Assembly: GCA_000091205.1 (NCBI GenBank)
Contig: AP006492.2
Length of the DNA: 64,000 nt
Direction: 5' to 3' (one strand)
Origin: Cyanidioschyzon merolae
Taxonomy: Eukaryota
Shown: in pieces, positions 4,977 through 44,086 of the stretch
Numbering within the stretch: position 1 is the stretch's first letter
Layout of the letters: every line of letters begins with the position of its first letter
The notes under the pieces: model-generated
The model's input: the letters and a program-made list of their open reading frames with translations, nothing else
Database searches by the model: none
What the model was told of the DNA's origin: nothing
Program-made: the position numbers and the translations under genes

Positions 4977-5093
4977 TGACGTCTGCACTAGGGCGGGTTT
5001 CGCCGCCTCTACACCGCCGGTGACACCGTTTTTCTTTTGAAAGACGTTTGTTTCCAGGGGTGAAAGCGACAGAATCGGGACGTGCGTGCTGCC
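4977..5093 (+). ncRNA. Conserved structured non-coding 3' end of the Fanzor element (candidate omegaRNA scaffold / right end)
   Basis: 'ggcgggtttcgccgcc' hairpin, 'caccgccggtg' near-palindrome and the T-tract 'ccgtttttcttttg' are identical in copy B (reverse complement at 14707..14926) and partly conserved in C (26372..26463). Confidence 0.25.
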
Positions 5094-13984: not shown

Positions 13985-14614
13985 TCATCTAGCGGTTCCT
14001 CGGTACCGTTCCCGAAACATGCTTTTTACGCGCCATACACGCCAACCAAGGGTGCTGAACAGCACCATCATTTCGACCAAGGTCATGACTCGGAGCCGAC
14101 GCATGCTCTGTCGCAGTTTGCCCTTCGTTCGTAGGTCTTCGTGTAACGCGTGTTGCGCACGATACTTCAGGTCCTCCAGGGTTTGCGCCAGCGTTAAAAC
14201 AGAGCGCTCAAACCGTTTCAGCTGACCTTTTTTCAACAACGCCTCTAGCTCTGGGAAGTGCGGGGCGCTGATTCCGAACCGTACGCTCGCTGCGGGTGGC
14301 TCCGCAACCCAGCAGAAACAGTAGTCCCCATCGTCAGGCGCCTGGAAAACAAGCTCTGCAGCAGGCCCTTTGGCAGTTTCTAACCGTTTCCGTCCGTCAA
14401 GGGTACTGACCCATGCACGTACTCGCGTTCGTTCCCACTGAAGCGGATAGAACGCCGCCCTTACCCTTTGACCAGTATAGAGACTCTCAAGGACACACGT
14501 CTCGGTTGTGGAGCTGGAGCTCTTCGGATCGAATATAAGCGCGAGCCCCTCGAAAGCCAATAGAAATAGGATAAACAAACAACTTGATGCAATCTTCTTC
14601 GACCTCGCCGTCAT
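13985..14614 (-). CDS. p24/emp24 (TMED, GOLD-domain) cargo receptor
   Basis: N-terminal hydrophobic signal ('SSCLFILFLLAFEGLA'), GOLD-like domain, coiled-coil region, C-terminal 'LRVMTLVEMMVLFSTLGWRVWRVKSMFRER' matching the p24 'RV..WS...LV....Q...LK.FF' tail. Confidence 0.55.
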   Translation of the reverse strand: MTARSKKIASSCLFILFLLAFEGLALIFDPKSSSSTTETCVLESLYTGQRVRAAFYPLQWERTRVRAWVSTLDGRKRLETAKGPAAELVFQAPDDGDYCFCWVAEPPAASVRFGISAPHFPELEALLKKGQLKRFERSVLTLAQTLEDLKYRAQHALHEDLRTKGKLRQSMRRLRVMTLVEMMVLFSTLGWRVWRVKSMFRERYRGTAR

Positions 14615-14671: not shown

Positions 14672-17205
14672 TATGCGTGTGTGTTTGCACGTGCACGCCC
14701 GACACCGCCAAACGTCTTTCAAAAGAAAAACGGTGTCACCGGCGGTGTAGAGGCGGCGAAACCCGCCTTAGACTAGACGTCATTAACTAACTTGCAGACG
14801 CCTCCCCGTCTTTTTCGACCGGCCACCCACTACTGCTTCCCATTTCTTCTCATATAGTTCCACTTTCAGTGACTGTCCAACAAAGAGCTCTCTTGTCTGC
14901 TCTGGAGGTCTTGTCTCCAGCACCGCTCATTTCCTTATATTGATGGCAGCATTAAAGTCGCGGTTCACAAACTCCATACGTTTCTTGCCATCACTGGTTG
15001 CACTTACTAATGCAAAGAGTCCACGAACTTTCGCCCTCCTTTCCATTAGCTCCTCCGTCAGCGGTCCGTACTTTGCTATGTCCTTAGGGCTCCGCTGGCA
15101 CATTTTCATCTCGACCCTCTGAAGTTTACAACCCAGCTCATGGTGTGTATAAGATGTTCGGAACTCGTCTGCAGGTATTGTAACAAAACGCCGTGCACAC
15201 TCCTTGTACGTTCTCGTCGTTGGAGCTGGCGGAGTCCCTTTTTGGGTCATCCAGTGCACCGCTCTGTGCGCTACGACGAGCCTTTGAGTCTTGTCCTCTT
15301 TCGAGGCGCTCAACTCATGGAAAAAGTTCGCGAATGCACGCTGCTTTCCACAATACAGATTCATACACAGACGAGCTCACATGGGCTTTGTATACTCCTC
15401 CCACAGCGCCTCCCAATGAGCAACACGAACTTCCATGAATTTCCGAAAAGCTGTAAAGTCCGCTCCTCGGCTCGTCACCTCGCTCATAGCTTCCAGGTGC
15501 TCTTTCATTCCTGAATTCCACGTCTCAGTTTTCTTCCTCGCATTCATGGTTCCCGATTCCCGGTAATATCTCGCATTCGAGAGCTTGAACACACGCATGT
15601 CTTTCTGACGTAATTTGCCGTCAGTACCGTCTTCCGCACGCTTGGGTGCAGCAAGGGCTAGGATGTTCGTGCTCCCAGGGTCAAGGCCAACGACCAAGTC
15701 GTTCTCCTGCACCTCCTGCGTCGCAGGAACTGTCTCCTTGTTTTCTCCATGCTTCGTCACGGGCGAAGCCGAAGGCATGATAGGATGATCCGCATTCAAG
15801 CGCCGACACTGTAAGCATATGGATACCCCATCGATATGGATGATCCCTGTGAATGCTTTTTTCGTGCTCGTATTGAGACGTTTGAAATAGAAGATAGTCT
15901 TCCAATGAGTCTCCCGGTTATCGCCGGTGAACTCTATCTGCCTTACATCGAATTCCAGACTGATCTCCATCATGATGCCGTAAAGGACTCTGGAGTCGAT
16001 CGTCACGAAGCATGACTTGACGTTGCACAACTGAAAGACGTTGAAGCACTTGCCCTGAAGCGCAGTCTTCCGTTTCACCGACTCTTCACGTTTTCCCCGC
16101 TCAGCTCCATCTACGCCTTGCGTTCGAATTCTCGGTTCAGGAGCACGATATAGCGCAGGATGAGGGGATAACATCTTTTTTCATATCTGATACCCTCTCT
16201 GCTCGATCGACCTGCCCCAAGACTGCACGATGCTCTTTAATAGCCGGACGGATTACAGAAGCTTCGTTTCTGCTTCGGCGTGACGTCTTCTCGTCGAAAA
16301 ATTCGATCTGCTGTTCGTGCTGGCGATAAGTCCTGATTTCATTGATGCTAGCCCACATCCCCTGGCGAGAGAGGTCGGGGTTCAGCGCAAACATAGTGCG
16401 TATCATGAAACGTTCGAAGTTCACGATCATATGGTTCTTCAGGTCCGTGAGGTACTTAATTGCCCCGCAGGTGTATATATTCGAGTCACGCTCGTGTCGA
16501 GTGCCGTCGAAGCGGAATTTGGAGCGATTTGCATGGAGGGCATGCGGTCGCTCAGTTTCCGTCGACGTTTCCTCTGTGCCAAGCCTCAGGTGACGAATAA
16601 AGGCCTGGTCGAAAAATTCTTCCGGAACCTGGACTGTTTTCATGTGCGTCACGTCCCGAAACATCTCCTTCACCAAATGCACTAGCCATGACGAAGCCTT
16701 TATAAAACTCATAGAGTACGACTCGACGCAGTTTCTAATGGCGTCTCGTAACTTTTCCTCGTACGGATCCTTGATATGTCGACGAAGACAGGCTTTCGCC
16801 ACCATCTCGTCGTACTGTCATCTTGCTCGCAGCCTTTGTCGTAGGGCCCCCTGCCTCAGCTTTTTCGTCTTTTCCAGTTCCTTTTTGCTCTGGCTGCCGG
16901 CGACTACAGCCCTCAAAGATCCTCCACTTTCATTTCCATAACTCTTCTTTTTTTATGTTTTTGAGCAAAAACACACTTTGAACGCTTCTGCTATAAACCG
17001 CGAATAGTCACTTGAATCCACTCCCATGAGGGTCAAAGCACAATTGAACTGAAAAACTCTACCTTGCTACGACTTGAAAGCAAATACAACTTGCACGTTA
17101 GAACTACAGATCAACGAATAGTCAGGATTGCGTTCCCTTTCAACGGCGATACGCGCGTCGTGTCTCATGGATGCCAGAGCTCTCGGGTGCGCGTATCGGC
17201 CACGC
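14672..17205 (-). mobile_element. Fanzor/TnpB-like element, copy B (inverted relative to A; boundaries +/- 40 bp)
   Basis: 3' segment 14707..14926 is the exact reverse complement of A 4977..5052. The 5' leader 16806..17205 is homologous to A 2285..2717 and to the C/D leaders. Confidence 0.5.
14927..16805 (-). pseudogene. Fanzor (TnpB-like) ORF, copy B (frameshift near 16150, in-frame TGA near 15366, extra stop after 'NAAINI')
   Basis: Proteins from 14927..15364, 15377..16174 and 16137..16805 match the A fragments. Same RuvC-I '[17 protein letters not shown]' and RuvC-III 'FVNRDFNAAINI'. Confidence 0.55.
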
Positions 17206-17910
17206 TATGTAGAACAAAGAACAGAGACTCACTACTAACTCGCAACGAGATAACAATTTCTTTTCCCCACTATGATAAATGTTAAAAGTGGGCAACGGTT
17301 TCCGCACTGTCGAACGTTTACCTTCTCGGCGGAAGGTCCCACGAGCCAGACGAGTCTGCCGGGCTAGTGCTTCGTGCACAAGCGAGCGACGAGTTCAGTG
17401 GCGAGACCTGAGCAGCTCGTCCGCAACGTAGTTTATTCTGGGACTAGGATCGGGTAGCCTGCGTCTGGGCGTCACTCTTGTTGCAGTGGCCTCCTAGTAT
17501 ATCAATTCGGATTGCCGCCTGTACTAGGTCCGTCTGCGCTGCTTGCAGGCTCCCAGAATGATTATGAATCCCAGATCCCCATCAGGTGAAGCTTTCCTCG
17601 ATCCGACGCCCTCTGTGGTTTGGCAACGCCGTTCTGCCTCCCTGCAGCATCTGCCCAGAGGTTTAGGCGCCATCGCCGATGCTCAAAGCAGGCAATCGGC
17701 ACACGATAGAACATACGAAACGACCAGTACATCCGAGAGAAAGTATAAGTAATGGAACTAGAAGACAGGGCACAGCATAATAAGTGTCTTCCCGTTTGCC
17801 TGTGACGATCCCGCAATCTGGGATCCATGGACCATAGAGACAATGTACAACCATGAAAAATACGGCCCAAGAGGCAGCCAGCGCATCCTTTTTGACCGTT
17901 ATGTACATAA

Positions 17911-25195: not shown

Positions 25196-26404
25196 CTAGG
25201 TCGCGTAGAGTACTTCAGCAGGCGAGTAATCGTCAAAAGCTCGCGGTGAGCGCCGATGCTCCAGTCGCAAGTGCTGGTGCACGTCCGGCCATACCTGCAC
25301 ACAATTTGGTCCATACGCTTCAGCAACAGCATGAACAGCTGTGTAGTACACCTGGTCAGTACGTACGAAGCACTTTTCACGGTTCAGGTGCGGTTTGCAA
25401 ACGCGATCAACGGGAGCGGCAGCACCTAGCCATGGCCTCCGGAGCGACGTCTGAGAGGCTTCGCTCCAGTTCAGAGCCGGTTCAATAACGTCGTAACGCC
25501 ACCAGCAAGGCACTCGAACACTGCACAGGTTAATCGGTAGTTGTCTTTCAATGTCATCCAGCACATGCAGTACCGGGCTTTCCGGATTAGAGCGCAGCGC
25601 ATTTTCGCTCGGAACGATGTACTCGTCCACATCTGCGAAAAGAATCCATTTGAATATGCCGCGATTCCGCCACAAACAATCGTTCATGGCTGCAATCTGA
25701 ACATGATTCCAGTGCACGCCCTTTGGTGGACGAAATGGCCACGCTATGATCGATACATTCGCAGGCACATCGGCGAGTCGCTCCGTCAATTCATCCCTAA
25801 GCTCCATTATTCTGGAACCACAGGCATCCGGCTCATTGAGATAGATGAAAAAATTCCGAATGCCGACCCTTGTATGGTGTATGATCCACGACAGGAGGAG
25901 GCTCTGCGAAACGGAGCGTTCTACGTTGTTCGGCCGACGGTTCTCCTGAGACTCAGGGCGCAACCGCAGCATCGTCCAGGCAGCGAGATGTAACTGCTCG
26001 TTTGGAGCAGTTCCTTCGAAAGCATCGGCGTCTGGTTTGCACTGCAGAATGAGCACTTCGTTTTGCGGGTCTAGGCGTGGCGGGAGAACGCCACCGGGCG
26101 CACACCACGTCGCTGCTGCTTGCTCTACAGTGCGCCGGTCCAGGGGCCCGCGAGCGCTCAAGACCAGCGTTTCAAGACCGTCACGTGACCGGAACCTGTC
26201 AAGGACGCGTAGCTTCGCGTAGGAGGTGATTCCTGTAGTCTCCTGGGTAAAACGGCATGCTTCTAGTATGGAAAGCGTGCGCTCGAGAGCATCGCCCGAC
26301 CTGGAGTGAAGTAATACCAGGAGCGTCAGCAGCAGGACGCAACCGGACAGCAGTCTTCTCGGGAAACCTGTTCCAGACGCACCTCCGACACCAACAACAA
26401 ACAT
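25196..26404 (-). CDS. GT92 (DUF23) family glycosyltransferase, type II membrane topology
   Basis: N-terminal hydrophobic anchor 'LLSGCVLLLTLLVLL'. GT92-like block 'WPFRPPKGVHWNHVQIAAMNDCLWRNRGIFKWILFADVDEYIVP'. First ATG at 26404 (ORF-track start 26482 is TTG). Confidence 0.5.
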   Translation of the reverse strand: MFVVGVGGASGTGFPRRLLSGCVLLLTLLVLLHSRSGDALERTLSILEACRFTQETTGITSYAKLRVLDRFRSRDGLETLVLSARGPLDRRTVEQAAATWCAPGGVLPPRLDPQNEVLILQCKPDADAFEGTAPNEQLHLAAWTMLRLRPESQENRRPNNVERSVSQSLLLSWIIHHTRVGIRNFFIYLNEPDACGSRIMELRDELTERLADVPANVSIIAWPFRPPKGVHWNHVQIAAMNDCLWRNRGIFKWILFADVDEYIVPSENALRSNPESPVLHVLDDIERQLPINLCSVRVPCWWRYDVIEPALNWSEASQTSLRRPWLGAAAPVDRVCKPHLNREKCFVRTDQVYYTAVHAVAEAYGPNCVQVWPDVHQHLRLEHRRSPRAFDDYSPAEVLYAT

Positions 26405-28995
26405 CTCCCAAAAGAAAAACGTTGTGACCGCCAGTGGTGTACAGTAGTGGCGAGTGCTCCGCCTTAGACTAGACGTCGCCAACTGACGAGCTGATGCCTT
26501 CCAGTCTTTTTCGACCGGCCACCTACAACGGCTTCCAATTTTTTCTCATATAATCCCACTTTGAGTGGTTGTCCCTTAAAATTCTCTCTTGACAGCTGTG
26601 GAGGTTTTTTCTCCATCACCGCGCATCTCCTGATATTGATGGCGGTGTTAAAATCTCGGTTCACAAACTCCATACGTTTCTCGCCATTGTTGGTACTCAC
26701 CAATGCAAGCAATCCTCGAACTTTCGCCATCCTTTCCATCTGCTCCTCCGTCAGCGGTCCGTATTTTCTTATCCTCAGGGCTCCTCATGCACATTCCTAC
26801 CTCCACTCTCTGAAGTAGACACCCCAGCTCATGGTGTGTATACGACGTTCGAAACTCACCTACAGGTATTGTTACAAAGCGCCTTGCGCACTCCTTATAC
26901 GCACTCGTCGTTGGAGCTGGCGTAGTTCCTTTTTGGGTCTTCCAGCGCCCTGCTCCGTATGCTACTACGAGCCTCTGACTTTTTTTATCCTCCTTCAAGG
27001 CGCTCATCTGATTGAAAACGTTCGCAAATGCCCGCTGCCTCTCTCCGTATAGACTCATACGCAGACGAGCCCACCGGGGCATGGTATACTCCTTCCACAG
27101 TGCGTCCCAATGGGCAACGCGAACTTCCATGAATTTCCGAAAAGCAGTAAAGTCCGCTCCTCAGCTCGTGATCTCCCTCATAGCTTCGAGGTGATCCTTC
27201 ATTCCTGCATTCCACCTCTCATTTGTCTTCCTTGCATTCATTATATCCGATTCTAGACAGTATCTCGCTCTCGAGAACCTCAAAAGACGCATGTCTTTCT
27301 GAGGTAAGTTGCCGTCAGTACCATCATCCGCACGCTTGGGAGCAGCGATGGTTATGATATTCGTATTCCCAGGGTCCGCGCCGACGACAAAGTCGTTATC
27401 TTGCACCTCCTGCGTCGCAAGATCCGCCTCCTTCTTTTCTGCATTCTTCGCCGCGCCAACGAAAGTCGTTATCCTGCACCTCCTGTGCCGCAGGATCCGC
27501 CTCCTTCTCACATTCATGGTTCGTCACGGGCGCAGCCGAGGGCGGGACTGGACGATCTCTCTTCAACCGCCGATAGTGTATACACAAGGCTACTCCATCG
27601 GTATCGATCATCCCAGTGAGTACCTTTTGTTTGCTCACCCTCAGACGTTTGAAATCGAAGATATTCTTCCAGAACGTCTCCCGGTTTTCACCGTAGAATT
27701 CCTCCCTGCTAACATCGAACTCCGGACTGATCTCCTTCATGATGCCATGAAGGACTGCGGAGTCGATACTCACAAAATGTGACTTGATGGTGCACATCGG
27801 AACGATGTAGAAGCGCTTACCCATCAGGAAAGCCTTCCGTCTGTCCCAGTCTTCAGTTTTCCCCACTCAGCTTCATTTCTGCCTTGCGTTCGAGTTCTCG
27901 GTCCAGAAACACGAAATAACATAGGATGAGGCGATAGTATCTTCCCTTATCTTTTTCAACGCTGATATCTTGTCTGTTGGATTCGGCAGCCCCATGACTG
28001 CACGGTGCTCTTGTATATCCGCACGGATGACGGAGACCTTATTCGTGCTCTGGTTTGACGCCTTCTTGTCGACAAATTCGACGTCATCTTCACGCTTGCG
28101 ATCGTTCGTGATGCCATTGATAATCGCTGATATTCCTTTGGGACAGATGCCCGGGTAGAGTGCAAACAAGGCGCGTATCATGTAACGTTCGAGGTTCACT
28201 GTCAAATTGTTCTTCAGGTTCGCGGTATACTTTATCGCCCCGTATATGTAAATACCCCGGTCACCGCTTTATCGATTACTCTCGAGGCGGAATTCCGCCA
28301 AGTTTTCGTGGAGGGCATGCACTGGCTCATTTTCCCCCGCGCTTACTCTGTACCAAGCATCAGCTGACGAATAAACGTCGCATCGAAAACGCCGTCCGGG
28401 AACCTCGACCGTTTCCATGTGCGTCACTTCGCGATACATCTCCCTCGCCAAATGCATCAGTCCTGACGAGGCCTTGACAATACTCTTGGAGTACGAGTCG
28501 ATACGTTTTTCGATAGCGTTTCGCTAGTGTTCCCTGTAAGGATCCTTGATATGTTTAAGAAGAAAGGTTTTCACCAGCATCTCGTTGTACGGTTGTAGTT
28601 CTTGCGGCCATCGACTTGGGATATCCCCTTTTTGCGTTTTCTTCTTATGCTGTTCTTCTGAACTCGGTACTGTTTTTTTCTTTTCTGGCAGCCAGCGACA
28701 CTGGGGCGTCAGGATCGCCGACTTGCTTTTTCATAACATCCTTTTTTTGTTTTTTTTTGAAAAGAACGCTCCATCAACGCCTCTGATATAGACCGCTAAA
28801 TATCACTTGGATAAACTAAATTGAGCGTTGAAACATAATTGACCTGAAAAGTGTACTCTGTTATGACTTTAACGAATATACAACTTGTAATTGAGAGCAA
28901 CACGCTCAAGATCGCGATCGCGTTTCCCTTCACCAACGACATGCGCGTGGTGTCTCATACCTGCCAGATATGGAGGTGCGCGTATCGACCGCTAT
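26372..28995 (-). mobile_element. Fanzor/TnpB-like element, copy C (near-identical to copy D)
   Basis: ORF fragments 26464..26739, 26648..27130, 27161..27517, 27396..27866, 27873..28205 and 28269..28457 match the Fanzor protein. 5' leader ends ~28995 where LINE sequence begins. Confidence 0.5.
26464..28583 (-). pseudogene. Fanzor (TnpB-like) ORF, copy C (multiple frameshifts and stops)
   Basis: '[18 protein letters not shown]' (RuvC-I), 'EFRTSYTHHELGC', 'RMEFVNRDFNTAINI' (RuvC-III). Has TGG (W) where A/B have the TGA stop. Confidence 0.55.
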
Positions 28996-30380
28996 AATCC
29001 CTTGGCACACGGACTCGAACTCCAAATACCCTCGACAGAAGGTATAGCAGCAGGCTGCCGGGTACGTATATGGGCCAAAGGGCCCGCCATGCGCACCTCT
29101 TTGAGTCGGATTTTCATGCAGACCCCTACGCACCTCAAGAACACTTGGACGAAATTGACGCAGATTGGGCTGAAGCGCCTATTAGACGAACATACGCTCC
29201 CCAATCGTTCCCCAGGAATGTACAAGGCTCCCGCCGCCTCAAGCGAACGGTCCAAACAACAATATGGGAACGTAGACACGGAACCAGTCGCGCCAGTAAC
29301 GCCGGCTTGATCCTATACCGGAGCTACAACCTAGCATACACATGCAAGTACTGGTGGGAGGCGCTGGAATTCCCGGGACTTGCTCGAGGTACCCAGTGGC
29401 TCGCCAAAATCCGCGTTGGTGGCTTCTGGCTAGCGGCACCGGCTCTAAGCCGTATAGGGACACTGGAATCGCACTGGGAGTCACACTGTCCCTGCTATCG
29501 AGACGATAACCCCGAGACGCTGACATATTTAGGCTTACAGTGCCCGCGCTGGAAGCAGGAGCGCAGCGAGCTCCTTGAAGGACAGCAGCAGCTGGGCATC
29601 ACCATGATATCCGAGGGCCGGACACTCACTTTGAGAGCAGCACTGGCAACTGATGGTCCGCTAACAGATCCTCAGCGCTCATTAGTGGCGAACAAACTCA
29701 CATGCTACCTTCCAAGCGGAAGGTCCAGCGGATCGGATGCGCACACGGGCCCAGTGCTCTCTGCGCCTACCTTCTGTATGGGTGTCAAACACAAACCCGC
29801 ATTGCCAACCGACGACAACGCATTCCATGCATGATCACGAAAGAGAGAGGCGGCTCCCACGATATATCCTAACAGTCAAGTTTCTCCAGCGTGTCGAGCA
29901 GCGAAGACAAGCCTGCATCCGCAGACTGTCCGAGCACACACTGACGACGAGACCCGATTCTACGTCGGGTGAAGCGCACCTTGAGCCGACGCCCTCTGGG
30001 GTATAGAAAAGCCGTTCTGTCTCCATGATGCATCTGTACCAAAGGTAAAGACGCTATTGCGGACAATTAGGACAGGTTCTGGGCACACGATAGGACGTAT
30101 GAGATGACCAGAATATCCGAGATGAAGGATAGGTAATTTGACGTGGAGGTACGGGGGTTGATGGATACCCCACCGCGCACTGTAAAAAAATAACGCAAAA
30201 AGTAAGAAAAGAAAAATGCGCACAATCGGAGAACGCTGGCCCAAGTAAACGCGTTGTCCGTGAAAAAGGACTCATCGATGCCGGCAGGCGTGCAGGCAAT
30301 CAGGCAGGCGGCAATCTCAGCCACAGAATGCGACGGCGCGAGCGCACGTCCTTCCCGGGGCAATAAGCGGCGCCTTTCGT
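28975..30380 (+). mobile_element. LINE-like retrotransposon, copy 3 (5'-truncated: end of RT ORF, C-terminal Cys/His ORF, ~300-nt 3' UTR)
   Basis: 28891..29834 ORFs match copy 2 39551..40400 in inverse orientation. 30067..30363 matches 39076..39318 (3' UTR). Confidence 0.6.
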
Positions 30381-30462: not shown

Positions 30463-31896
30463 ATGATAGCGTTCGTTATTAATTCTGCAACGAAGGCCGC
30501 AGTTAGCCCATTAAAAGGACAAATTTGCCGTGGTCTTCCGAAAAACCCGAGCTTTGCGGCGTCTACCTGGCTAGGGCAGGCTGCGCTCTCGACGCGGCCG
30601 CGAAGTTCGCAAGGGCGTGGGCGCTCCGGTGTTCGCGAAAGCGCAGCTACGCGCGCACGCGCTCCTGTTTGTGTTCAAACAAGTGACGTTGCTATGCGGG
30701 TCCGTTCTATTCGTGATTTGCAGGACGCTGAAATCCGCGGAAAAAGAGTGTTTGTTCGTTCTGATTTGAACGTGCCCCTTGATGGAAAGCGAATCACAGA
30801 CGACACGCGGATTCGGGCGTCCGTCCCGACGATCAAGTACCTCGCAGACAAAGGAGCAAAGGTGATCGTCGTTTCGCACCTCGGGCGACCCAAGGGCGGC
30901 TTTGAGGACAAATATTCCTTGGCGCCAGTGGCGGAACGTCTCTCGGAACTCTTGGGAAAGAAGGTTCGCATGGCAAAGGATTGTATCGGGGACGCAGTGG
31001 CGACCGAAGTAGCGGCTATGTCCCCTGGAGATGTTGTTCTTCTGGAGAACGTCCGTTTTTACCCTGAGGAAGAAAAGAACGACCCCGATTTTGCGCGCAA
31101 GCTAGCGGCGAATGCGGACCTCTACGTGAATGATGCGTTCGGAACGGCGCACCGGGCGCACGCGTCCACAGAGGGCGTTACCGCTTTTCTCAAACCCGCA
31201 GTGGCGGGATTCCTCCTCGAAAAAGAGCTGGATTATTTGTCGAACGCAATTGAGAGCCCGAAGCGTCCATTTGCCGCTATCGTTGGAGGCTCCAAGGTCA
31301 GCACGAAAATCGCTGTTTTGGAGAAACTTCTTCAAAAATGCGATACAATCATCATCGGAGGAGGCATGGTATTTACGTTTCTCCGCGCGCGCGGTCTGAA
31401 GACTGGTAGCTCGCTTGTTGAGGAAGACAAAATTGAGTTGGCACGAGTCATCGAGGAAGAAGCGCGCAAGCGGGGAATCGAGCTCCTCCTACCCCTCGAT
31501 GTTGTCGTCGCCGATAAGTTCGCCAATGATGCGAATACAAAGGTCGTACCAGTGGAGGAGATTCCGGACGGATGGATGGGTCTTGATAACGGGCCAGAGA
31601 CGACAAGAATGATCCAGGAGAAGCTTCGCACGATGAAGACTGTTCTTTGGAACGGGCCCCTGGGCGTTTTCGAGATGCCGAACTTTGCCAAGGGCACCTT
31701 TGCCATTGCGGAGACTCTCGCGGAGATCACTCAGAACGGCTGCATCACGATTGTGGGAGGTGGCGATTCTGTTGCCGCTATGGAGCAATCAGGTAAGGCG
31801 GACAAGGTATCGCATATCTCAACCGGTGGTGGCGCTGCGTTGGAGTTAATCGAGGGGCGGGTATTGCCAGGTGTAGCGGCGCTCCAGAGGGCGTGA
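30463..31896 (+). CDS. PGK: phosphoglycerate kinase with ~77-aa N-terminal extension (alternative start at 30694 gives a canonical ~400-aa PGK)
   Basis: '[16 protein letters not shown]', '[11 protein letters not shown]', '[23 protein letters not shown]', '[16 protein letters not shown]', 'GGGMVFTFL', 'GGGDS', '[10 protein letters not shown]'. Confidence 0.85.
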
Positions 31897-35078: not shown

Positions 35079-36527
35079 TCAACAATCCGACCTCGGATTC
35101 TGCGCTTCTCTGACAGGCAGTTGTAAACGAGCGCTACTCCACTCGTACCGCAAAACCTGGTCGTATGTTTGGTGAAGAGCGGCCTCGCGTATCCATCGGT
35201 AGGTTTCAGCACAACCTGTGCCGCAGGCCAGATCCAAAAGCTGTTTAACCTGCTCCACACTGTACGCCCGACAATCAAGCCCCTTAGTGCTGCCGTCATC
35301 CAGAGCCATATTTCGATAATCCACCCAAAGTAGCTGCACACCGTGCTCCAAACTGGAGCCAGCGTGCGGATCTCGAAAATCAACGATCCGCTGTGGAACG
35401 GGTTGGAATGACTCGCCAGCAAGCACTGCGACTGTGACCTCCGGTACGACAGCTCCAAAGGCTGCCTGCCAAATGCGGGCCTGCTGCAGCTCCCAGTTGG
35501 AGGGATCCGCCGCCGCGACAAAGCGTCGGGCTCCGGAGCCTAGCTCCTCGGTCGGGAGTGCAACTGCGCTGCACGCGACAATAAGATCACGAAGCGGTAC
35601 AGCGGCATGTAGCAGCGCTAGGCTCACAGCGTTCACGGCAACGGCAAATTCGCTGCCATCGCTCTGGAGTACTTGGACGAATATGTCGACCTGAGCATGC
35701 GATGGCATGTACCGAGAGGACCCTGCGCTATTGGCATCGCTTCCTACCAGTATAGCGGGTTCGAACACCTCGCGAATATGCTCTGCTGCTTCGCGGGACT
35801 TTTGGCGGAATTTGCTGCTCGCGACAATGCCTGGCAACCGGAAAGACCGCTCCGTCTGCGCTTCGTGTGGAGCCGCCTCTGTGCGACCTATTCGGAGAGC
35901 TCCATTCTTTTCATCGTGACTATCCATTGTACTGGTTCGCATGATGGCTGTGCCCGCATACCTGTTCTGTTGTCGACGCCTGTAGGCACGCAGGGTTCGC
36001 ACCGAGCTCGCTGCCCCAGCGAAGGACGCTGTGCTGTACTCGCAGTGCACCCGGCCGTGTGCTGTTGCTGGTGGTAGCAGCTTGAGAGCAGTTGCGGGCG
36101 ATTCGTTGCCTGGAGCGTTACTGATAGCTGAATCAGAGTGATCCGACTCCACCGTGTCAATGTTGAGAGCCGTCTCCATATCGGAGTCGATGCTGGAGTC
36201 GTCCGATTCGGCGAAAACTGCACCTGCAACCGCTTGGGCTGGCCTAGCGGCGTGTGTCTCCGGGACGACTGGCGCTTGATACTCGGAAACCGCAGTGCGA
36301 AGTGCGTCATTGATCAGTGCTCGGGTGCTTGGTATACTCAAAGCTCCTTTTTTTGTTTCATAGGGGCCGTAGACAGCTACAAGCACCCGGGTTTGTCCTT
36401 GTTCTACGAGAACACTCCCGTCGGCGCCCGGAACCACCCCAAGCTGTGCAGAAATGCTCCTTACTTCATCTGGTTTCCGTCCGTCAACACGCAGTCCATC
36501 AAGACTCAGTAGATCTTGGGGTTTCAT
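35079..36527 (-). CDS. exosome complex RNase-PH-like subunit (Rrp41/Rrp46/Mtr3 class) with ~200-aa low-complexity insertion
   Basis: 'LRVDGRKPDEVRSISAQLGVVPGADGSVLVEQGQTRVLVAVYGPYE' (RNase PH N-lobe), '...DIFVQVLQSDGSEFAVAVNAVSLALLHAAVPLRDLIVACSAV' (C-lobe). ATG start verified at 36525..36527. Confidence 0.55.
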   Translation of the reverse strand: MKPQDLLSLDGLRVDGRKPDEVRSISAQLGVVPGADGSVLVEQGQTRVLVAVYGPYETKKGALSIPSTRALINDALRTAVSEYQAPVVPETHAARPAQAVAGAVFAESDDSSIDSDMETALNIDTVESDHSDSAISNAPGNESPATALKLLPPATAHGRVHCEYSTASFAGAASSVRTLRAYRRRQQNRYAGTAIMRTSTMDSHDEKNGALRIGRTEAAPHEAQTERSFRLPGIVASSKFRQKSREAAEHIREVFEPAILVGSDANSAGSSRYMPSHAQVDIFVQVLQSDGSEFAVAVNAVSLALLHAAVPLRDLIVACSAVALPTEELGSGARRFVAAADPSNWELQQARIWQAAFGAVVPEVTVAVLAGESFQPVPQRIVDFRDPHAGSSLEHGVQLLWVDYRNMALDDGSTKGLDCRAYSVEQVKQLLDLACGTGCAETYRWIREAALHQTYDQVLRYEWSSARLQLPVREAQNPRSDC

Positions 36528-36551: not shown

Positions 36552-39110
36552 GCTCCTCCGCGGCACCCCACGCAACGCGCCAACAACGCCGTTCTGAACT
36601 CGAACGACGTCGAACGTGTACTGTATTGGCGACCAGTGCTCTAGACAAGAAGTCTCCAACTGATGTGCAGAGACCTCTCAGTTTTCTTGGACCGGCCACC
36701 TACTACGGCTTCCAACCTTTTCTCATATAATTCCACTTTGAGCGGTTGTCCCTTAAAATTCTCTCTTGTCAGCTGTGGAGGTTTTTTCTCCATCACCGCG
36801 CATCTCCTGATATTGATGGCGGTGTTAAAATCTCGGTTCACAAACTCCATACGTTTCTCGCCATTGTTGGTACTCACCAATGCAAGCAATCCTCGAACTT
36901 TCGCCATCCTTTCCATCTGCTCCTCCGTCAGCGGTCCGTATTTTTTTATCCTCAGGGCTCCTCATGCACATTCCTACCTCCACTCTCTGAAGTAGACACC
37001 CCAGCTCATGGTGTGTATACGACGTTCGAAACTCACCTACAGGTATTGTTACAAAGCGCCTTGCGCACTCCTTATACGCACTCGTCGTTGGAGCTGGCGT
37101 AGTTCCTTTTTGGGTCTTCCAGCGCCCTGCTCCGTATGCTACTACGAGCCTCTGACTTTTTTTATCCTCCTTCAAGGCGCTCATCTGATTGAAAACGTTC
37201 GCAAATGCCCGCTGCCTCTCTCCGTATAGACTCATACGCAGACGAGCCCACCGGGGCATGGTATACTCCTTCCACAGTGCGTCCCAATGGGCAACGCGAA
37301 CTTCCATGAATTTCCGAAAAGCAGTAAAGTCCGCTCCTCAGCTCGTGATCTCCCTCATAGCTTCGAGGTGATCCTTCATTCCTGCATTCCACCTCTCATT
37401 TGTCTTCCTTGCATTCATTATATCCGATTCTAGACAGTATCTCGCTCTCGAGAACCTCAAAAGACGCATGTCTTTCTGAGGTAAGTTGCCGTCAGTACCA
37501 TCATCCGCACGCTTGGGAGCAGCGATGGTTATGATATTCGTATTCCCAGGGACCGCGCCGACGACAAAGTCGTTATCTTGCACTTTCGGGGTCACAGGAC
37601 CCGCCTCCTTCTTTTCTGCATTCTTCGCCGCGCCAACGAAAGTCGTTATCCTGCACCTCCTGTGCCGCAGGATCCGCCTCCTTCTCACATTCATGGTTCG
37701 TCACGGGCGCAGCCGAGGGCGGGACTGGACGATCTCTCTTCAACCGCCGATAGTGTATACACAAGGCTACTCCATCGGTATCGATCATCCCAGTGAGTAC
37801 CTTTTGTTTGCTCACCCTCAGACGTTTGAAATCGAAGATATTCTTCCAGAACGTCTCCCGGTTTTCACCGTAGAATTCCTCCCTGCTAACATCGAACTCC
37901 GGACTGATCTCCTTCATGATGCCATGAAGGACTGCGGAGTCGATACTCACAAAATGTGACTTGATGGTGCACATCGGAACGATGTAGAAGCGCTTACCCA
38001 TCAGGAAAGCCTTCCGTCTGTCCCAGTCTTCAGTTTTCCCCACTCAGCTTCATTTCTGCCTTGCGTTCGAGTTCTCGGTCCAGAAACACGAAATAACATA
38101 GGATGAGGCGATAGTATCTTCCCTTATCTTTTTCAACGCTGATATCTTGTCTGTTGGATTCGGCAGCCCCATGACTGCACGGTGCTCTTGTATATCCGCA
38201 CGGATGACGGAGACCTTATTCGTGCTCTGGTTTGACGCCTTCTTGTCGACAAATTCGACGTCATCTTCACGCTTGCGATCGTTCGTGATGCCATTGATAA
38301 TCGCTGATATTCCTTTGGGACAGATGCCCGGGTAGAGTGCAAACAAGGCGCGTATCATGTAACGTTCGAGGTTCACTGTCAAATTGTTCTTCAGGTTCGC
38401 GGTATACTTTATCGCCCCGTATATGTAAATACCCCGGTCACCGCTTTATCGATTACTCTCGAGGCGGAATTCCGCCAAGTTTTCGTGGAGGGCATGCACT
38501 GGCTCATTTTCCCCCGCGCTTACTCTGTACCAAGCATCAGCTGACGAATAAACGTCGCATCGAAAACGCCGTCCGGGAACCTCGACCGTTTCCATGTGCG
38601 TCACTTCGCGATACATCTCCCTCGCCAAATGCATCAGTCCTGACGAGGCCTTGACAATACTCTTGGAGTACGAGTCGATACGTTTTTCGATAGCGTTTCG
38701 CTAGTGTTCCCTGTAAGGATCCTTGATATGTTTAAGAAGAAAGGTTTTCACCAGCATCTCGTTGTACGGTTGTAGTTCTTGCGGCCATCGACTTGGAATA
38801 TCCCCTTTTTGCGTTTTCTTCTTATGCTGTTCTTCTGAACTCGGTACTGTTTTTTTTCTTTTCTGGCAGCCAGCGACACTGGGGCGTCAGGATCGCCGAC
38901 TTGCTTTTTCATAACTTCCTTTTTAAGTTTTTATAAATCAGCCCTCCGTGAACGCTTCTGTTATATACTGAGAAAAACAATCGAATATTTTCACTTGAGG
39001 GTTGAAACACAATCGAACTGAAAACTATACATGCCTATGAAGTTAACAAAAATACAACTTTGACATTAGAGCTACATGCTAGATATCAAGATCACGTTTC
39101 CCTTTAACGG
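36552..39110 (-). mobile_element. Fanzor/TnpB-like element, copy D (5' leader truncated at ~39110 by LINE copy 2)
   Basis: 36641..38700 is essentially identical to 26464..28520 (copy C). 3' end is more diverged than A/B/C. Confidence 0.5.
36641..38760 (-). pseudogene. Fanzor (TnpB-like) ORF, copy D (frameshifted)
   Basis: ORFs 36641..36916, 36825..37307, 37338..37694, 37573..38043 and 38050..38382 match copy C. Confidence 0.55.
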
Positions 39111-39550
39111 CGGCATGTTTTTCATTAACAACGCGTTTACTTGGGCCAGCGTTCTCCGATTGTGCGCATTTTTCTTTTCTTACTTTTTGCGTTATTTTTT
39201 TACAGTGCGCGGTGGGGTATCCATCAACCCCCGTACCTCCACGTCACATTACCTATACTTCATCTCGGATATTCTGGTCATCTCATACGTCCTATCGTGT
39301 GCCCAGAACCTGTCCTAATTGTCCGCAATAGCGTCTTTACCTTTGGTACAGATGCATCATGGAGACAGAACGGCTTTTCTATACCACAAAGGGCGTCGGC
39401 TCAAGGTGCGCTTCACCCGACGTAGAATCGGGTCTCGTTGTCAGTGTGTGCTCGGACAGTCTGCGGATGCAGGCTTGTCTTCGCTGCTCGACACGCTGGA
39501 GAAACTTGACTGTTAGGATATATCGTGGGAGCCGCCTCTCTCTTTCGAGA

Positions 39551-40321
39551 TCATGCATGGAATGCGTTGTCGTCGGTTGGCAATGCGGGTTTGTGTTTGA
39601 CACCCATACAGAAGGTAGGCGCAGAGAGCACTGGGCCCGTGTGCGCATCCGATCCGCTGGACCTTCCGCCTAGAAGGTAGCACGTGAGTTTGTTCGCCAC
39701 TAATGAGCGCTGAGGCTCCGTTAGCGGACCATCAGTTGCCAGTGCTGCTCTCAAAGTGAGTGTCCGGCCCTCGGCTATCACGGTGATGCTCAGCTGCTGC
39801 TGTCCTGCAAGGAGCTCGCTGCGCTCCTGCTTCGAGCGCGGGCACTGTAAGCCTAAATATGTCAGCGTCTCCGGGTTATCGTTTCCGCAGCAGGAACAGT
39901 GTGACTCCCAGTGCGATTCCAGTGTCCCTATACGGCTTAGAGCCCGTGCTGGTAGCCAGAAGCCACCAACGCGGATTTTCGCGAGCCACTGGGTACCTCG
40001 AGCAAGCCCCGGAAATTCCAGCACCTCCCACCAGTACTTGCATGTGTATGCTAGGTTGTAGTTCCGGTATAGAGTCAAGCCGGCGTTACTGGCGCGACTG
40101 GTTCCGTGTCTACGTTCCCATATTGTTGTTTGGACCGTTCGCTTGAGGCGGCGGGAGCCTTGTACATTCCTGGGGATCGATTGGGGAGCGTGTTGTCTCC
40201 TAAGAGGCGCTTCAGCCCAATCTGCGTCGATTTCATCCAAGTGTTCTTGCGGTGCGTTCGGGTCTGCATGAAAATCCGACTCAAAGAGGTGCGCGTGGCG
40301 GGCCCTTTGGCCCGTATACAT
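39551..40321 (-). CDS. LINE C-terminal ORF with Cys/His motif, overlapping the RT ORF end in another frame
   Basis: 'ESHWESHCSCCGNDNPETLTYLGLQCP'. The same overlap arrangement is present in copy 3 (29070..29834 vs 28891..29310). Confidence 0.5.
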   Translation of the reverse strand: MYTGQRARHAHLFESDFHADPNAPQEHLDEIDADWAEAPLRRQHAPQSIPRNVQGSRRLKRTVQTTIWERRHGTSRASNAGLTLYRNYNLAYTCKYWWEVLEFPGLARGTQWLAKIRVGGFWLPARALSRIGTLESHWESHCSCCGNDNPETLTYLGLQCPRSKQERSELLAGQQQLSITVIAEGRTLTLRAALATDGPLTEPQRSLVANKLTCYLLGGRSSGSDAHTGPVLSAPTFCMGVKHKPALPTDDNAFHA

Positions 40322-42274
40322 GCCCGGCAGCCTGCTGCTATCGCTTCTATTGAGAGTATTTGGAGTTCAAGTCCGAGTGCCAGCGCGGTGGTTGCCCTGC
40401 TCTGCATTGAGCATCCAACAACAACGAGTCTCATTGCCCCGTTGGCGGCTGTCTGCGGACGCGAGGCATTTGTGTGCTTCATGCCGCACCACTCAGCACC
40501 CCAGGTCGCAGGCTGGGTGATACACATCCTTAGTGCCCTCGTACGAATTGCTATGCGGATAGAGGGGTCGGATGGGAATGAGCGTGCGATCGCTGTACCT
40601 CTATGCATCTTGGCGATCATCTCGTCGACGTGTGCCTTTTCGTCGAGCGTCGGCGTGAGACCGACCCCCAGGTAGCGATATTTTTCCACGATCGGGATTT
40701 CCGGATTCTGCAACCGCCACGAGCGATTGCGAATGCTCTGCGAGTCTCCATGGATGACCATGACGCCGCACTTCGATGCTCCTATGCTCATCTCCCAGCG
40801 ATCGGCCCAGTCGCTGACTTGTTGCATGCTAGCCGCAAGCGTTTCAGGGGCGGGTGCCAACAGCACGACATCGTCCGCAACTAGACGGCCTGCGAGGCGG
40901 TTCCTATGTGAGGGCTCCTCATCGGGCATCTCCACAGTCTATCCACGGCACCTCAAGCCCGTATTGTCTGCAGTTGTTCAGCAGATCGTTGATGAAGATG
41001 TTGAAAAGGAGCGGGGATGCGCGCTCGCCCTGCCGCAGTCCACGGCGGATTCTTCTGGAAGGGGTTCTTGAGCTGTCGCCCAGTCGGATGCGCATCCATG
41101 AGTCTGCATAGAGCGCACGGAAGAACGCTAAGCACTTTCCGGAGACTCCGGCGCGTTCCATCTTCAGAAATGGAGCCTCGTGCGGGACCGTGTCAAAGGC
41201 CTTTTGAAAGTCAATGAAGCATACGTAAGTTGGTTGTTGGCCGCTAATGGAGCGACGTTGCACCACTTCAGTTAGGGTCAGGACATGGCTCATGCACTCC
41301 TCGTGGCTCCGGAATCCAGCCTGTTCTGGGGCGAAGAACTTGCGTTCCTGGAGGCCTCTCTGGATCCGGTTCGTGGGAATGGCGCAAAGTAGCTTCATGA
41401 TTGACGGGATGAGGCGCATAGAGCGGTAGTTGTTCATGTCTGTGTGGGAGTCCTTTTTGAGGATCGGTACGACCTCAGCAGTCCTCCATACATCCGGGAT
41501 GTACGCCTCTTCGAACATGCGTTGGATGAGCTCCACAAGGCGTTTGCCTAAGCTTGTGTCAGATTCATCTGGTATTGATGGTGTCCCTGTTGTCCCGTCT
41601 TTTGGGGTCACCAGTTTCATCCACTCCGCAGGGATACCGTCGATGCCAGGTGTTTTGCGGTTGCATGACCTTAAGAGGGTCCGGACAGATTCAGGCCAGA
41701 AGATTGGGTCGTTCCATTCCGGTACCGATTCGAGGCGCGGTAGTTCTGCGGCATACTGGTGCCAATAGATTGGGTCTTGGCAGTGCCCAGTTGCTTCTTC
41801 ATGCAGCTCTGTGCCGTGGTCCGTCCAGGCCTCATTCACTGAGGCACGCTCCGTCCTCAGCGCTTCCTCATAAACGATTGGTGTGAGCCCCAGGCACTTT
41901 TTTGGTGGGTCCAGTCTCGGTCGAATGTAGCGCCAGGTCTCATCTTCGTTGGTGCTCTCTAGCATAGATTTCGCCAGGGAGGCGATTTCGCGGTTTCGAT
42001 CCTCTCGTTTGTCTTCTCTGGAAAGTTTCTTCTTTCTTTTGATAGCTTCTTCATGTTGCGCCTGTAGCGCCGTTAGGACTGCCTTCGCTTCCTTGTCTCC
42101 GGCGTTGACGCGTATGGCGGTGTGGTTGACGATCTGATAGAGTCGGTGGCGCTCGTCAATCCGGGTATTGGTACGTCGTTTCAGGCACTGAGGTTTGCAA
42201 CTGTTGCGTTCTGGTGCAAGCAGTCCCAGCTCTCCGGCAATCTTCTGATTCCCATCTACAAACTCGCGTGCCAA
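40075..42274 (-). CDS. LINE ORF encoding reverse transcriptase (two overlapping ORF segments, frame change near 40919..40935); no AP-endonuclease domain recognisable
   Basis: 'FIDFQKAFDTVPHE', 'LRQGERASPLLFNIF', 'LVADDVVLLAP' (FADD-box equivalent); only ~120 aa N-terminal to the RT. Confidence 0.6.
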
Positions 42275-44086
42275 TTGGTCTAAAGATTTGTATGCACGGC
42301 TTTTCGGATCTTCAGCGCTGTGAGTAGGTGACTTGGTTTGGCGACGGCTTTCTTGAGTTCCTGCTGGGGTGCTCTTTCGGGGACGACTTGTGATGGGCTC
42401 GCTGGAGCCCCCGCCTGTGGGCTCGTTCGGGAGTTCTTCTTTCTATTCTTCTGTTTTTCTCTTGCTGGTTTGCTTCTTCATCGGGCTCTTTCCTGAGCTA
42501 CATTCTCTGGTTACTTTGCATCTAGGTGGATCATGAGGTTTCTGTGTCTCCTTCTCCGTGTCTGGTTGGGTCTCTTTTCCTTTTGTACAGTCCTCGACTT
42601 GTATCAGTTCTTCATTACTGTACTGGTAATTCGATATCTCGTAGTTCAATACCGAGGCGATCCCACAAATATTCCATGATGCGAAACCTATCGAGTCGTA
42701 GCGCATAAGGGAATAGGAGTAACGCTGCGGTACTCGAGAGATACGTTGTCGATTGAGATGCACCCTCCACGGAGTGTGTGAGAGCACATGCCACCAGCGC
42801 CTCCTACATTCCAGTCGTTCACTGAGTGTCTGCCGCAGCGCTAGCGTAGAATCAGATGTACGCTAGTCAAGGTCGATTCAAATGCGACCTTTATATTGCC
42901 CGACGCTTTAACCTCCCCTCAACAATTGGGAACAGTCTGCAAACCACCCTTTCAGCGGCTACGTATCCGCTCCCCAAACACATAGGCGGGCAAGCCGCTT
43001 ATTCCAGCTTCGACCGCAAACATACTGCCAGCCGTCTTCCAAAGTATCCGCCGAAATTGTTCCCAAAGTTGAGGTAGGTACCCAAGGTAGGAGATAAAAC
43101 TGAGCCCGAGTCCGAGGATCGATCCAAGATTTGCGCCCGAACCTGCAGCGTTGATTCGGGAGGGGCGGATGACTAATCAGGATTTTCGTCAACATTTTCT
43201 GGTGCTACTGCCGCCGCCCCTCCGTTCGTTGCGCGGTCAAGGTCCCTGGCGTGGGCTTCCTTCGCCGTCGCCCAAGCACCCCGCGTTAACCCACTTTCAG
43301 AGCTTCTCCGGAAAAACTAGACCTTTAAGGCGGGCGTGGTGTGTGGGTCTTTAAGATAGTTGTTCTTTAATAAATAGTTTGCGACTAGTTTGTTTTGTTG
43401 TTTTTTTTTTGTTTTTTTCCGCACGACGATTTCTCTTTTTTGGTTACGAAGAACGTTCCATACACCACCGCCGTGCGATCATGGCGGCGTTTCATTGGTT
43501 GCGGATTGAACCGCCTCCGCGTCGTTGCACCATTCGATTCGAAACGTAGGGCATACGCGACGCCTGTTCCCGTCGGATGGGGACGTGTCGCCGGGCCGGT
43601 GCGGGTACCGCCCCGGGGATGTCGGCACCCAGACCCCGCGAACGGGGACGCAGGAGCAGTTCCCTCGAGCGGCCCCGCGAAATCAACAGACGACCATCGA
43701 TGCGTAATACGTGGCGTAAATCAGGTATGCAACCGATCGAAAGGATACCAAGTTACGACGGCGACGGTTTATTCACTGACGCCTTCTCCAGACCTTGGCG
43801 TTTTCCTGCTTCAATCCAGTTTAGACAGGGCGTTAGAGTTTTCACGGAGGGAACCTCGTCTATTCGGACCAGTCTGCTCTCTTTTTGGAGGGACAGGTCA
43901 AGATCCAGCGTTTTCCTGGCGTGTTGTGTTTGGGAGTGCGGAGCGCTTTCTGCTTGTGCAGTGGACGAAAGCGGCTTTTGGTTGTCTCGTCACTTTGGAC
44001 GCTACTGGAGAATAGAAGTCACTCGCTGTCTTCTACAGCTAGGAAACGCACTTATGTGATTTTATATTTCACTTAATAGGCAAATA

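Follow-up and report, generated by a model that had tools for sequence, protein, structure and literature searches.

Why do copies of one repeat come to lie directly in front of host genes that run in the same direction as the repeat itself? This question is raised by a 64,000-nt stretch of DNA from Cyanidioschyzon merolae, referred to here as the window, which carries four copies of a repeat of about 2.6 kb, copy A on the plus strand and copies B, C and D on the minus strand. A first, sequence-only reading of this stretch had remarked that three of the four copies end within about 100 bp upstream of the start codon of a co-oriented gene, and this observation holds. The conserved 3' end of copy B lies 94 nt before the ATG of a p24/EMP24 gene (81 nt from the end of a short tail described below), that of copy D lies 57 nt before the ATG of an RNase_PH gene encoding an exosome subunit (44 nt from the tail end), and copy C overlaps the ATG of a gene for a GT92 glycosyltransferase. 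The ends had been set at 14672, 26372 and 36552, which is 15-35 nt too far downstream, and this shift leaves the proximity itself untouched. We addressed the question by sequence analysis of the window and of metagenome contigs of related organisms, in which further insertions of the same family, Fanzor1 elements related to the bacterial TnpB proteins, were collected.

Fanzor 3' ends directly precede co-oriented host genes

A scan of the metagenome contigs yielded 80 loci that represent 40 distinct insertion sites, so that 44 sites were available together with the four window copies. At each site the distance was taken from the conserved element end to the first co-oriented open reading frame (ORF) that begins with ATG and comprises at least 120 amino acids (aa). 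The same ORF procedure applied at 4000 random intergenic, transposon-free positions served as the first null and a gene-model null as the second, both drawn from the same contigs. A co-oriented host ORF starts within 150 nt of the element at 27 of the 44 sites (61%), compared to 13.7% at the random positions (p = 3e-13) and 7.8% under the gene-model null. Within 330 nt this is the case at 35 of the 44 sites (80%), compared to 25.5% (p = 9e-14) and 15%, respectively. The median distance from conserved end to start codon is about 60 nt, with 0-17 nt in several cases; the ATG is located exactly at position +13 in five loci, and at +1, +2, +9, +16 or +17 in others. Orientation alone is biased as well, with 35 co-oriented and 8 opposite neighbours (p = 4e-5). 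The suspicion, raised by the window, that the elements favour the 5' regions of genes in their own orientation is strongly supported once the 40 further sites are added, and in its non-random distance and orientation relative to host genes the family belongs to the class of position-specific elements.

The 34 downstream proteins that were compared share no mutual homology, which indicates that they derive from independent host genes and not from orthologous loci counted twice. Moreover, a Pfam domain was found in each of the ten closest ORFs that were checked (10/10), identifying them as bona fide genes. In the KTI12 (L047), COPI_assoc (L004) and TPT (L059) genes, where the ATG at +13 coincides with the end of the element's tail, the Pfam domain begins at residue 1-16 of the predicted protein, and the ATG abutting the tail is therefore the genuine start. 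Since the start codon abuts the element in at least three cases, the 5' leader there is element-derived. At the far edge of the transposon block the situation is different: 16 divergent and 8 tandem neighbours were recorded at a median of about 400 nt, so that close spacing is a specific property of the Fanzor 3' end.

The most intimate contact is seen at copy C. The GT92 ATG is situated inside the 3' arm of the terminal hairpin of this copy, which reads GATGTTT instead of the GACGTTT of other copies, and codons 1-6 (up to 9) of GT92 consist of element sequence; of the roughly ten codons previously assigned to element-like sequence, these remain. The next in-frame Met follows only at about residue 165, well beyond the membrane anchor, which makes the ATG within the hairpin the only usable start of GT92. 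The ortholog P0042 aligns just from residue 65 on, and the N-termini of the two proteins do not align. A search with GT92 retrieved just an identical protein (contig L082) and one ortholog, whose 60% identity is too low to define an empty site at the nucleotide level. Positions 1-110 of contig L082 repeat part of the GT92 gene body, and this duplicate meets the element end at a CTCGAGCAC string common to both, which is probably an assembly artefact at the repeat boundary. Locus L019, whose element ends in GATGTTT, was considered as a second case of start-codon donation and rejected, because the hydrolase ORF at this site has an internal Met.

Donation of a promoter by the element, which the sequence-only reading had proposed as an alternative to target preference, is partly borne out: the ATGs at +13 in KTI12, COPI_assoc and TPT and the GT92 ATG within the element imply that a promoter or leader is donated in some form to the downstream genes.

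Identity of the element and its structured 3' end

The 2.6-kb unit contains a single long ORF, which is broken by in-frame stops or frameshifts in all four window copies. In conceptual translation the RuvC blocks VVGxDPGxTN, (D/G)EFRTSYTHH and NRDFN(A/T)AINI are kept in all four. The ORF of copy C carries both frameshifts and in-frame stops, yet its RuvC motifs including NRDFNTAINI are retained; the AYGAG motif is mutated in copies A and B. The conceptual protein did not match any entry in Pfam. Its 40 close homologs in JGI metagenomes include P0001, an intact relative of 752 aa encoded at locus L001, whereas no copy in the window encodes an intact nuclease, and 1232 relatives were retrieved in an exhaustive search. 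Used as a single sequence in a phmmer search, P0001 gave no match in the PDB; only the family profile reached Fanzor1 structures. This profile, built from 27 diverse members, matches the solved Fanzor1 chains of Parasitella (9cf0, 6.7e-22), Spizellomyces (8gkh, 7e-13) and Guillardia (9cer, 1.7e-8), with the DPGR, EFRT and NRD catalytic blocks aligned. Fanzor1 is a eukaryotic relative of TnpB and Cas12, an RNA-guided nuclease, and by their reading frames the window copies are decayed Fanzor1 pseudogenes. This identity, and with it the outward transcription expected of the 3' end, had been missed in the sequence-only reading.

Directly before the first RuvC motif, the Fanzor ORF contains a 75-nt tandem repeat encoding 25 acidic aa. 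Four units are present in copy A (3773-4072) and in the intact homolog (L001, 7140-7440), two in copies C (27389-27528) and D (37566-37705), and one in copy B. Copies A and B are furthermore mosaic: their 3' halves (3998-5050 and 14709-15761) are 97% identical, compared to just 74-78% for their 5' halves (2643-3846 and 15688-16880), and the 5' half of A is nearer to C and D (81-84%). The pattern suggests that dispersed copies have exchanged sequence by gene conversion, in a tract that stops exactly at the conserved 3' end.

Judged by the published description and not by the Repbase consensus, the window element fits the CMe-1A Fanzor1 family, with which it shares a length of about 2.6-3.2 kb, a single, often decayed Fanzor1 ORF, the lack of terminal inverted repeats (TIRs) and of clear target-site duplications (TSDs), and a partner repeat at the 5' side, which at copy B measures about 640 nt. 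CMe-1A has been reported as an unclassified family of about 150 copies of about 3 kb, about 80% identical to their consensus, without TIRs, with TSDs left undetermined, and with 5' 635 bp that equal TE-N2_CMe (Bao & Jurka 2013, PMC3627910). A transcribed 3.2-kb interspersed repeat with a WSV486-like ORF, present in 253 copies described as "distributed randomly" (Nozaki et al. 2007, PMC1955436), corresponds to CMe-1A. The host genome agrees as well, as its genes are free of introns and its G+C content is about 55%, both of which are found in the window. In these papers the distribution of the family is called random or left undescribed. The position of the 3' end before co-oriented genes, the donation of the GT92 start codon, the constant association of the 5' end with elements of the long interspersed nuclear element (LINE) type, and the terminal hairpins and tail were not encountered in the papers searched.

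In an alignment of 44 family members, conservation ends at ...G[GA]CGTT[TC] after a series of hairpins. The terminal hairpin exists in two sequence versions, CGTCGTTCGA-CTT-TCGAACGGCG and AACGTTTTTC-TTTT-GAAAGACGTT, and folds in nearly all copies (mean z = -2.2, 36 copies). Beyond the conserved end follows a tail of 13 nt with an identity of 0.38 among copies, compared to 0.26, the random level, for the next 13 nt. Copies with similar bodies also have similar tails (Mantel p = 0.0007), but positions +14..+26 are random. This implies that the tail is inherited together with the element, its inherited length being 13-20 nt. Copies B and C share GGTGTCGG..GTGC at +5..+19, and the first 7 nt past CGTTT show a G-N-T-G-N-T-G bias. 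A junction motif of the type 'cgg..cgtgc..gtgc', for which a role as target motif had been suggested, is the element's own inherited tail, the flanks being random beyond about +13.

Conservation and structure mark the 3'-terminal ~130 nt of the element. Of the cells in three proposed helices, 83% pair, compared to 37-62% when the partners are slid against each other. RNAalifold applied to the 240-nt 3' region returned hardly any consensus, as the two versions of the hairpin do not align properly, Rfam gave no match for the 3' end, and a scan of the 3' end for bacterial promoters and terminators, with models that are not relevant to this host, detected nothing. The guide RNA (omegaRNA) of TnpB and Fanzor elements is specified by their 3' end and has to be transcribed outward, past the element boundary and into the flank. 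By analogy, the 3' end of the window element is expected to be transcribed outward in the sense direction. About 150 nt before the element end (in copy C at ~26540-26551, minus strand) there is a box, AACTATATGAGA, that is nearly invariant in 36 decayed copies. It encodes ELYEK, is also TATA-like, and precedes the first helix of the conserved 3' structure by about 20-30 nt; this box could be the promoter of the guide RNA.

Partners at the 5' side and the route of insertion

Nearly every Fanzor 5' end starts with a hairpin in one of two covarying versions, GCGCTC-GGTG-AGCGC and GTGCGG-TCGATA-CGCAC, and adjoins another repeat at the same Fanzor nucleotide. Among 35 distinct copies the neighbours fall into five unrelated repeat classes plus singletons. 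Copy D and 7 further loci adjoin the exact 3' tail of a LINE (...ATGAAAAA) in the same orientation; copy A and 5 loci face the 5' end of a LINE head-to-head; copy C and L001 face a 5'-truncated LINE fragment head-to-head; copy B and 8 loci face, also head-to-head, a LINE-related element of ~640 nt that matches TE-N2_CMe; and 9 loci adjoin a fifth repeat, which in its longer versions takes in a degenerate Fanzor C-terminus. Through 5' truncation, the partner pieces vary in length from 286 to >1800 nt, with a constant junction to the Fanzor element. The LINE unit has a length of about 4.3 kb, and its conceptual 957-aa ORF comprises a reverse transcriptase (RT) domain, the only one recognized by domain search, plus a C-terminal zinc-knuckle region. 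Similarity to apurinic/apyrimidinic endonuclease (APE) or restriction-enzyme-like (REL) endonuclease was not detected in the decayed LINE copies of the window, whose alignment to P0192 starts at residue 340; the nearest LINE relatives in the database (at most 33% identity) carry an APE domain. Partner elements also end before host reading frames, the TE-N2-like 3' end at 17852 being located 58 nt before the ATG of a co-oriented ORF (17911) and the 3' end of the LINE fragment at 30267 being located 196 nt before the PGK ATG.

Some arrangements at the 5' side were noted in more detail. The class-2 upstream repeat, which has about 400-520 nt and stands before many Fanzor 5' ends, is seen at L025 (4300-5640), L060 and 7 further loci; a badly decayed Fanzor C-terminus (...RFRQNAINVR*CMVVEARSAELTRSNF...) lies in front of its longer versions, which indicates that some copies stand in tandem behind an older, diverged copy. 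LINE 3' ends in the form of short tandem partial duplications with 55-nt units were found at L003 (~1661) and at L017, L029 and L067 (~5090-5206). At L003 the head-to-head LINE fragment is adjoined at its far end by the start of a second Fanzor element, and composite nests of both element types are common.

Signatures of known transposition mechanisms were searched for in element copies and flanks. TSDs were not found around whole transposon blocks at 27 loci (permutation p = 0.83); a first look at four class-1 loci had given short shared strings in two of them (GGTGCG in L015, TCGCT in L037). No inverted termini were found in the element copies, and the 5' flanks of 35 distinct copies share no bases at the junction that would form a target-adjacent motif. 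Pairing between the segment 5' of the terminal hairpin and the flank, as a long terminal stem or as target pairing, was rejected, given that the own flank pairs no better than those of other loci (permutation p = 0.46). Ends were counted as 79 3' ends and 67 5' ends overall, and 4 of each in the window. The units are mostly full length, and an excess of solo 3' ends, which would be a sign of 5' truncation, was not seen. Retroposition in the manner of short interspersed nuclear elements (SINEs), which depend on a LINE, was likewise rejected as a classification, the copies lacking TSDs and a 3' tail in common with the partner LINE, and 5' truncation being confined to the partner pieces.

What, then, places the elements in front of genes? 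A gene 0-100 nt downstream of the 3' end and running in the same direction could, we infer, be expressed from outward transcripts, and a neighbour in the opposite direction would receive antisense RNA; outward sense transcription would in this way account for the orientation bias. That so many copies crowd into the last ~100 nt before the ATG suggests that elements either integrate at gene 5' ends or lose flanking DNA once inserted. The explanation that we favour, with a confidence that we put at about even, is orientation-specific integration at gene 5' ends combined with read-out from the element. Integration would be carried out by machinery encoded outside the 2.6-kb unit, with a preference for short 5' leaders or promoter-proximal DNA, and would occur in the target gene's own orientation. 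The outward-reading 3' region would then supply the 5' leader of the downstream gene, and probably its promoter too, and copies that read antisense into a neighbour would be lost. In the case of copy C, the element contributes even the start codon and the first 6-9 codons of GT92. As the element would bring its own leader or promoter, insertions next to housekeeping genes would be tolerated. Besides the statistics of distance and direction and the start codons that touch the element, this explanation draws on an empty site, the related genome L083 having no element between PGK and GT92, and on three traits of an outward-reading 3' end, namely the AACTATATGAGA box, the absence of ATG from the last 127 nt of the consensus, and the conserved terminal structure. 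What the element is, its placement and direction relative to genes, and the contact of some genuine start codons with it are shown; integration, read-out and purging are inferred.

Several observations weigh against this explanation. The rule is broken at 8 of the 44 sites, among them copy A, which is not near a gene start and is followed by the convergent citrate synthase gene at a distance of about 980 nt. First-ATG calls may overstate the proximity, as at L019, where the hydrolase probably starts at the internal Met, and the 40 added sites are located on metagenome contigs of related organisms and not in one finished genome. Within the element copies and flanks examined, neither a transposase nor a TSD, TIR or target motif was found. 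The proposed 3' helices, which were drawn by hand, show no covariation beyond that of shuffles. The family consensus is devoid of ATG in its last 127 nt, and 20 ATGs were observed compared to 68 expected over the copies; these copies share one consensus, however, and at the consensus level the ATG-free terminus is not significant (p ~0.15), GAT and TGA being equally rare. Element-driven transcription of the host genes is itself deduced from sequence. Finally, selection acting after random insertion could yield the orientation bias without any targeting.

This last objection leads to the alternative that we regard as possible, if rather unlikely: insertion at random, followed by purging of antisense copies and deletion of the flank down to the start codon, possibly by Fanzor cleaving its own locus with the flank as guide. 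The orientation bias of 35 to 8 is what selection against antisense read-out predicts, and convergent intergenic regions seldom carry elements (4 of 38, compared to 16 of 27 in divergent ones). At about 80% identity to the consensus, the copies are old enough to have left time for erosion. Furthermore, in the related genome L083 (GCA_041825655.1, JBBELT010000625.1), where the order RNase_PH-PGK-GT92 is kept, PGK and GT92 are separated by about 650 nt without an element, compared to a spacer of about 190 nt in the window after subtraction of the insert. However, co-oriented insertions 300-1000 nt upstream of a gene should be better tolerated, as they spare the native promoter, and yet 27 of the 35 co-oriented copies lie within 150 nt. 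It is the rarity of such more distant insertions, which would be at least as tolerable, that makes us favour targeting over selection and erosion. In addition, divergent regions hold about four-fold more elements than a model of uniform insertion per base with an orientation filter allows, and the window copies are pseudogenes, so that any erosion had to come early.

An improbable route is SINE-like copying of Fanzor RNA by the RT of the partner LINE into breaks at promoter-proximal open chromatin. Reverse transcription would start at the 3' end of the Fanzor RNA; a jump to LINE RNA would generate the tandem arrangement, and priming of the second DNA end on LINE RNA would generate the head-to-head arrangement. 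This would suit the 5' junctions, at nearly all of which one and the same Fanzor nucleotide meets a LINE, TE-N2 or other repeat, with the partner either co-oriented at its exact 3' tail or head-to-head, and with variable 5' truncation of the partner at a constant junction. An inherited tail of 13-20 nt is also expected if the RNA intermediate ends just beyond the scaffold, and non-LTR elements that look active are present in C. merolae. The undetectable APE domain of the window LINE, found in its relatives, would fit endonuclease-independent insertion without TSDs, but its absence could simply reflect decay of the copies examined. Against this route stand the lack of TSDs itself, the dissimilarity between the Fanzor 3' end (...CGTTT plus tail) and the LINE tail (...ATGAAAAA), and the mostly full-length Fanzor units, which are unlike typical 5'-truncated retrocopies.

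Less credible still is a role of the nuclease in which RNA from the element end carries the host leader as guide, and the resulting complex, possibly together with the LINE RT, directs insertions to gene starts or re-cuts alleles that lack the element. If this were true, each copy would be a "promoter cassette" of an essential gene, driven by the element and impossible to lose, and the family would provide the first natural role and the first target rule for a eukaryotic RNA-guided nuclease.

We give very little credence to the choice of a short target-adjacent motif that is common at gene starts, in the manner of IS200/IS605. Subterminal hairpins at both ends and the lack of TIRs and TSDs recall these elements, and the G-N-T-G-N-T-G bias after CGTTT has the appearance of a motif. 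However, this bias sits in the inherited tail, as documented by the Mantel test and the random positions +14..+26, and a motif of the G.TG type is ubiquitous and could not alone single out gene starts. Moreover, the 5' flanks, where a target-adjacent motif would be expected, consist of five unrelated repeat classes, and the flank shows no preferential pairing with its own element. The analogy to IS200/605 target-adjacent motifs drawn in the sequence-only reading is not supported, given the inherited tail, the unrelated 5' flanks and the lack of preferential pairing. Chance placement in a compact genome with short spacers (medians of 410-760 nt of non-transposon DNA), to which three of four window copies taken by themselves would be only weak opposition, is virtually excluded by the two nulls, which predict 8-14% within 150 nt and 15-25% within 330 nt compared to the 61% and 80% observed.

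Related systems, significance and further features of the window

The window elements resemble bacterial IS200/IS605 elements in having a TnpB-family gene towards their 3' side, a structured and putatively RNA-coding terminus that is expected to be read into the flank, subterminal hairpins at both ends, and neither TIRs nor TSDs. They differ from them in that no Y1 TnpA gene is found in or next to the copies, in the lack of a conserved 5' target-adjacent motif, and in their eukaryotic host. To our knowledge, a systematic position before host genes is not a property of IS200/IS605. Integration at defined positions is known from Dictyostelium TRE5-A and TRE3 at tRNA genes, from yeast Ty3 at the start sites of RNA polymerase III (Pol III) and from Schizosaccharomyces pombe Tf1 at Pol II promoters. 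These elements share with the window family a narrow distance to a class of genes in a gene-dense genome, and the TRE elements also a fixed orientation. However, they are retrotransposons for which tethering to transcription factors is known, and their targets are Pol III genes or promoters upstream of the start site, whereas the window family occupies the leader and start-codon region of protein-coding genes and encodes Fanzor in place of an integrase, so that the likeness is one of function alone.

Helitrons as a group frequently lie close to gene 5' ends, and Helitron2 elements share with the window elements a Fanzor1 cargo, hairpins at both ends and the lack of classical TIRs. In contrast to Helitron2, the window elements have no asymmetric terminal inverted repeats and no variable-length TSDs, and no RepHel partner was identified. 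The asymmetric repeats were rejected on the basis of a local score of 5.1, compared to 5.5 for shuffled sequences and 5.3 for other copies (permutation p = 0.80).

Fanzor nucleases are programmable genome editors. The gene-start rule offers a testable handle on how Fanzor elements choose or keep their sites, a point of interest as the natural role of these nucleases has been stated to be unknown (Saito et al. 2023). It implies that perhaps at least 100 housekeeping genes of a model alga would be transcribed out of a transposon, and that the guide sequence of each copy would be placed inside the leader of a host gene. The rule also bears on the tolerance of 5% of the DNA in the form of one transposon family in a genome that is dense in genes, poor in introns and very proficient in homologous recombination.

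Positions of the elements, their partners, the sub-features of copy C and the neighbouring host genes are collected in the table below.

Table. Features of the 64,000-nt window, in window coordinates
Feature	Position	Strand	Remarks
Fanzor copy A	2300..5063	+	5' end ~2300; conserved 3' end 5050; exception to the gene-start rule
Fanzor copy B	14696..17209	-	conserved 3' end 14709; tail to ~14696
Fanzor copy C	26386..29000	-	5' hairpin end ~29000; conserved 3' end 26399; tail to ~26386; four-copy alignment and nhmmer matches at both ends
Fanzor copy D	36572..39117	-	conserved 3' end 36585 (CGTTCGAGTTCAGAACGGCGTT hairpin version); stop TAG 36643-36641; 5' end short by ~60 nt
Copy C, ORF end (...VSWRRLV)	26464..26482	-	TAA stop 26466-26464; from sequence
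Copy C, conserved 3' non-coding region	26399..26463	-	candidate 3' part of the omegaRNA scaffold; from family alignment
Copy C, terminal 10-bp hairpin	26423-26400	-	AACGTTTTTC-TTTT-GGGAGATGTT; followed by T26399, the last conserved base
Copy C, inherited 13-nt tail	26386..26398	-	GTTGTTGGTGTCG; weakly conserved; likeness to copy B to ~26379
LINE copy	1 to ~2250	-	head-to-head with copy A
~640-nt LINE-related short element	17210..17852	+	fits TE-N2_CMe; head-to-head with copy B; 3' end ...CATGAAAAA
LINE fragment, 1265 nt	29003-30267	+	5'-truncated; head-to-head with copy C
Non-LTR (LINE-like) RT element	39118..43390	-	RVT_1; 3' end (...AATGAAAAA) abuts 5' end of copy D
Citrate synthase gene	6045-7514	-	stop at 6042; Pfam; convergent to copy A
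p24/EMP24 gene	13988..14614	-	Pfam EMP24_GP25L; ATG 14614
GT92 glycosyltransferase gene	25199..26404	-	Pfam Glyco_transf_92 5.8e-15; ATG 26404-26402
PGK gene	30464..31893	+	Pfam PGK; divergent from GT92
RNase_PH gene (exosome subunit)	35082..36527	-	Pfam RNase_PH 1.2e-21; ATG 36527

An exact lookup of the RNase_PH protein returned no record. The region of L083 between 1905 and 12823 contains RNase_PH, PGK, GT92, FAA_hydrolase and Surp in the order of the window, at about 60% protein identity and free of transposons, which makes it a useful outgroup for dating the insertions. Further along the window, a long tandem array of coding type extends from 44825 to ~49500, with units of 66, 78 and 90 nt in 51-69 copies that belong to three overlapping repeat families. 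A (GGTGGCGGTGGCCCT)n run at 44825-45004 comes before the array, which probably encodes a repetitive Gly/Pro-rich surface or wall protein. Between 52000 and 64000 the G+C fraction is about 0.60, compared to about 0.52 in the part of the window that bears the transposons.

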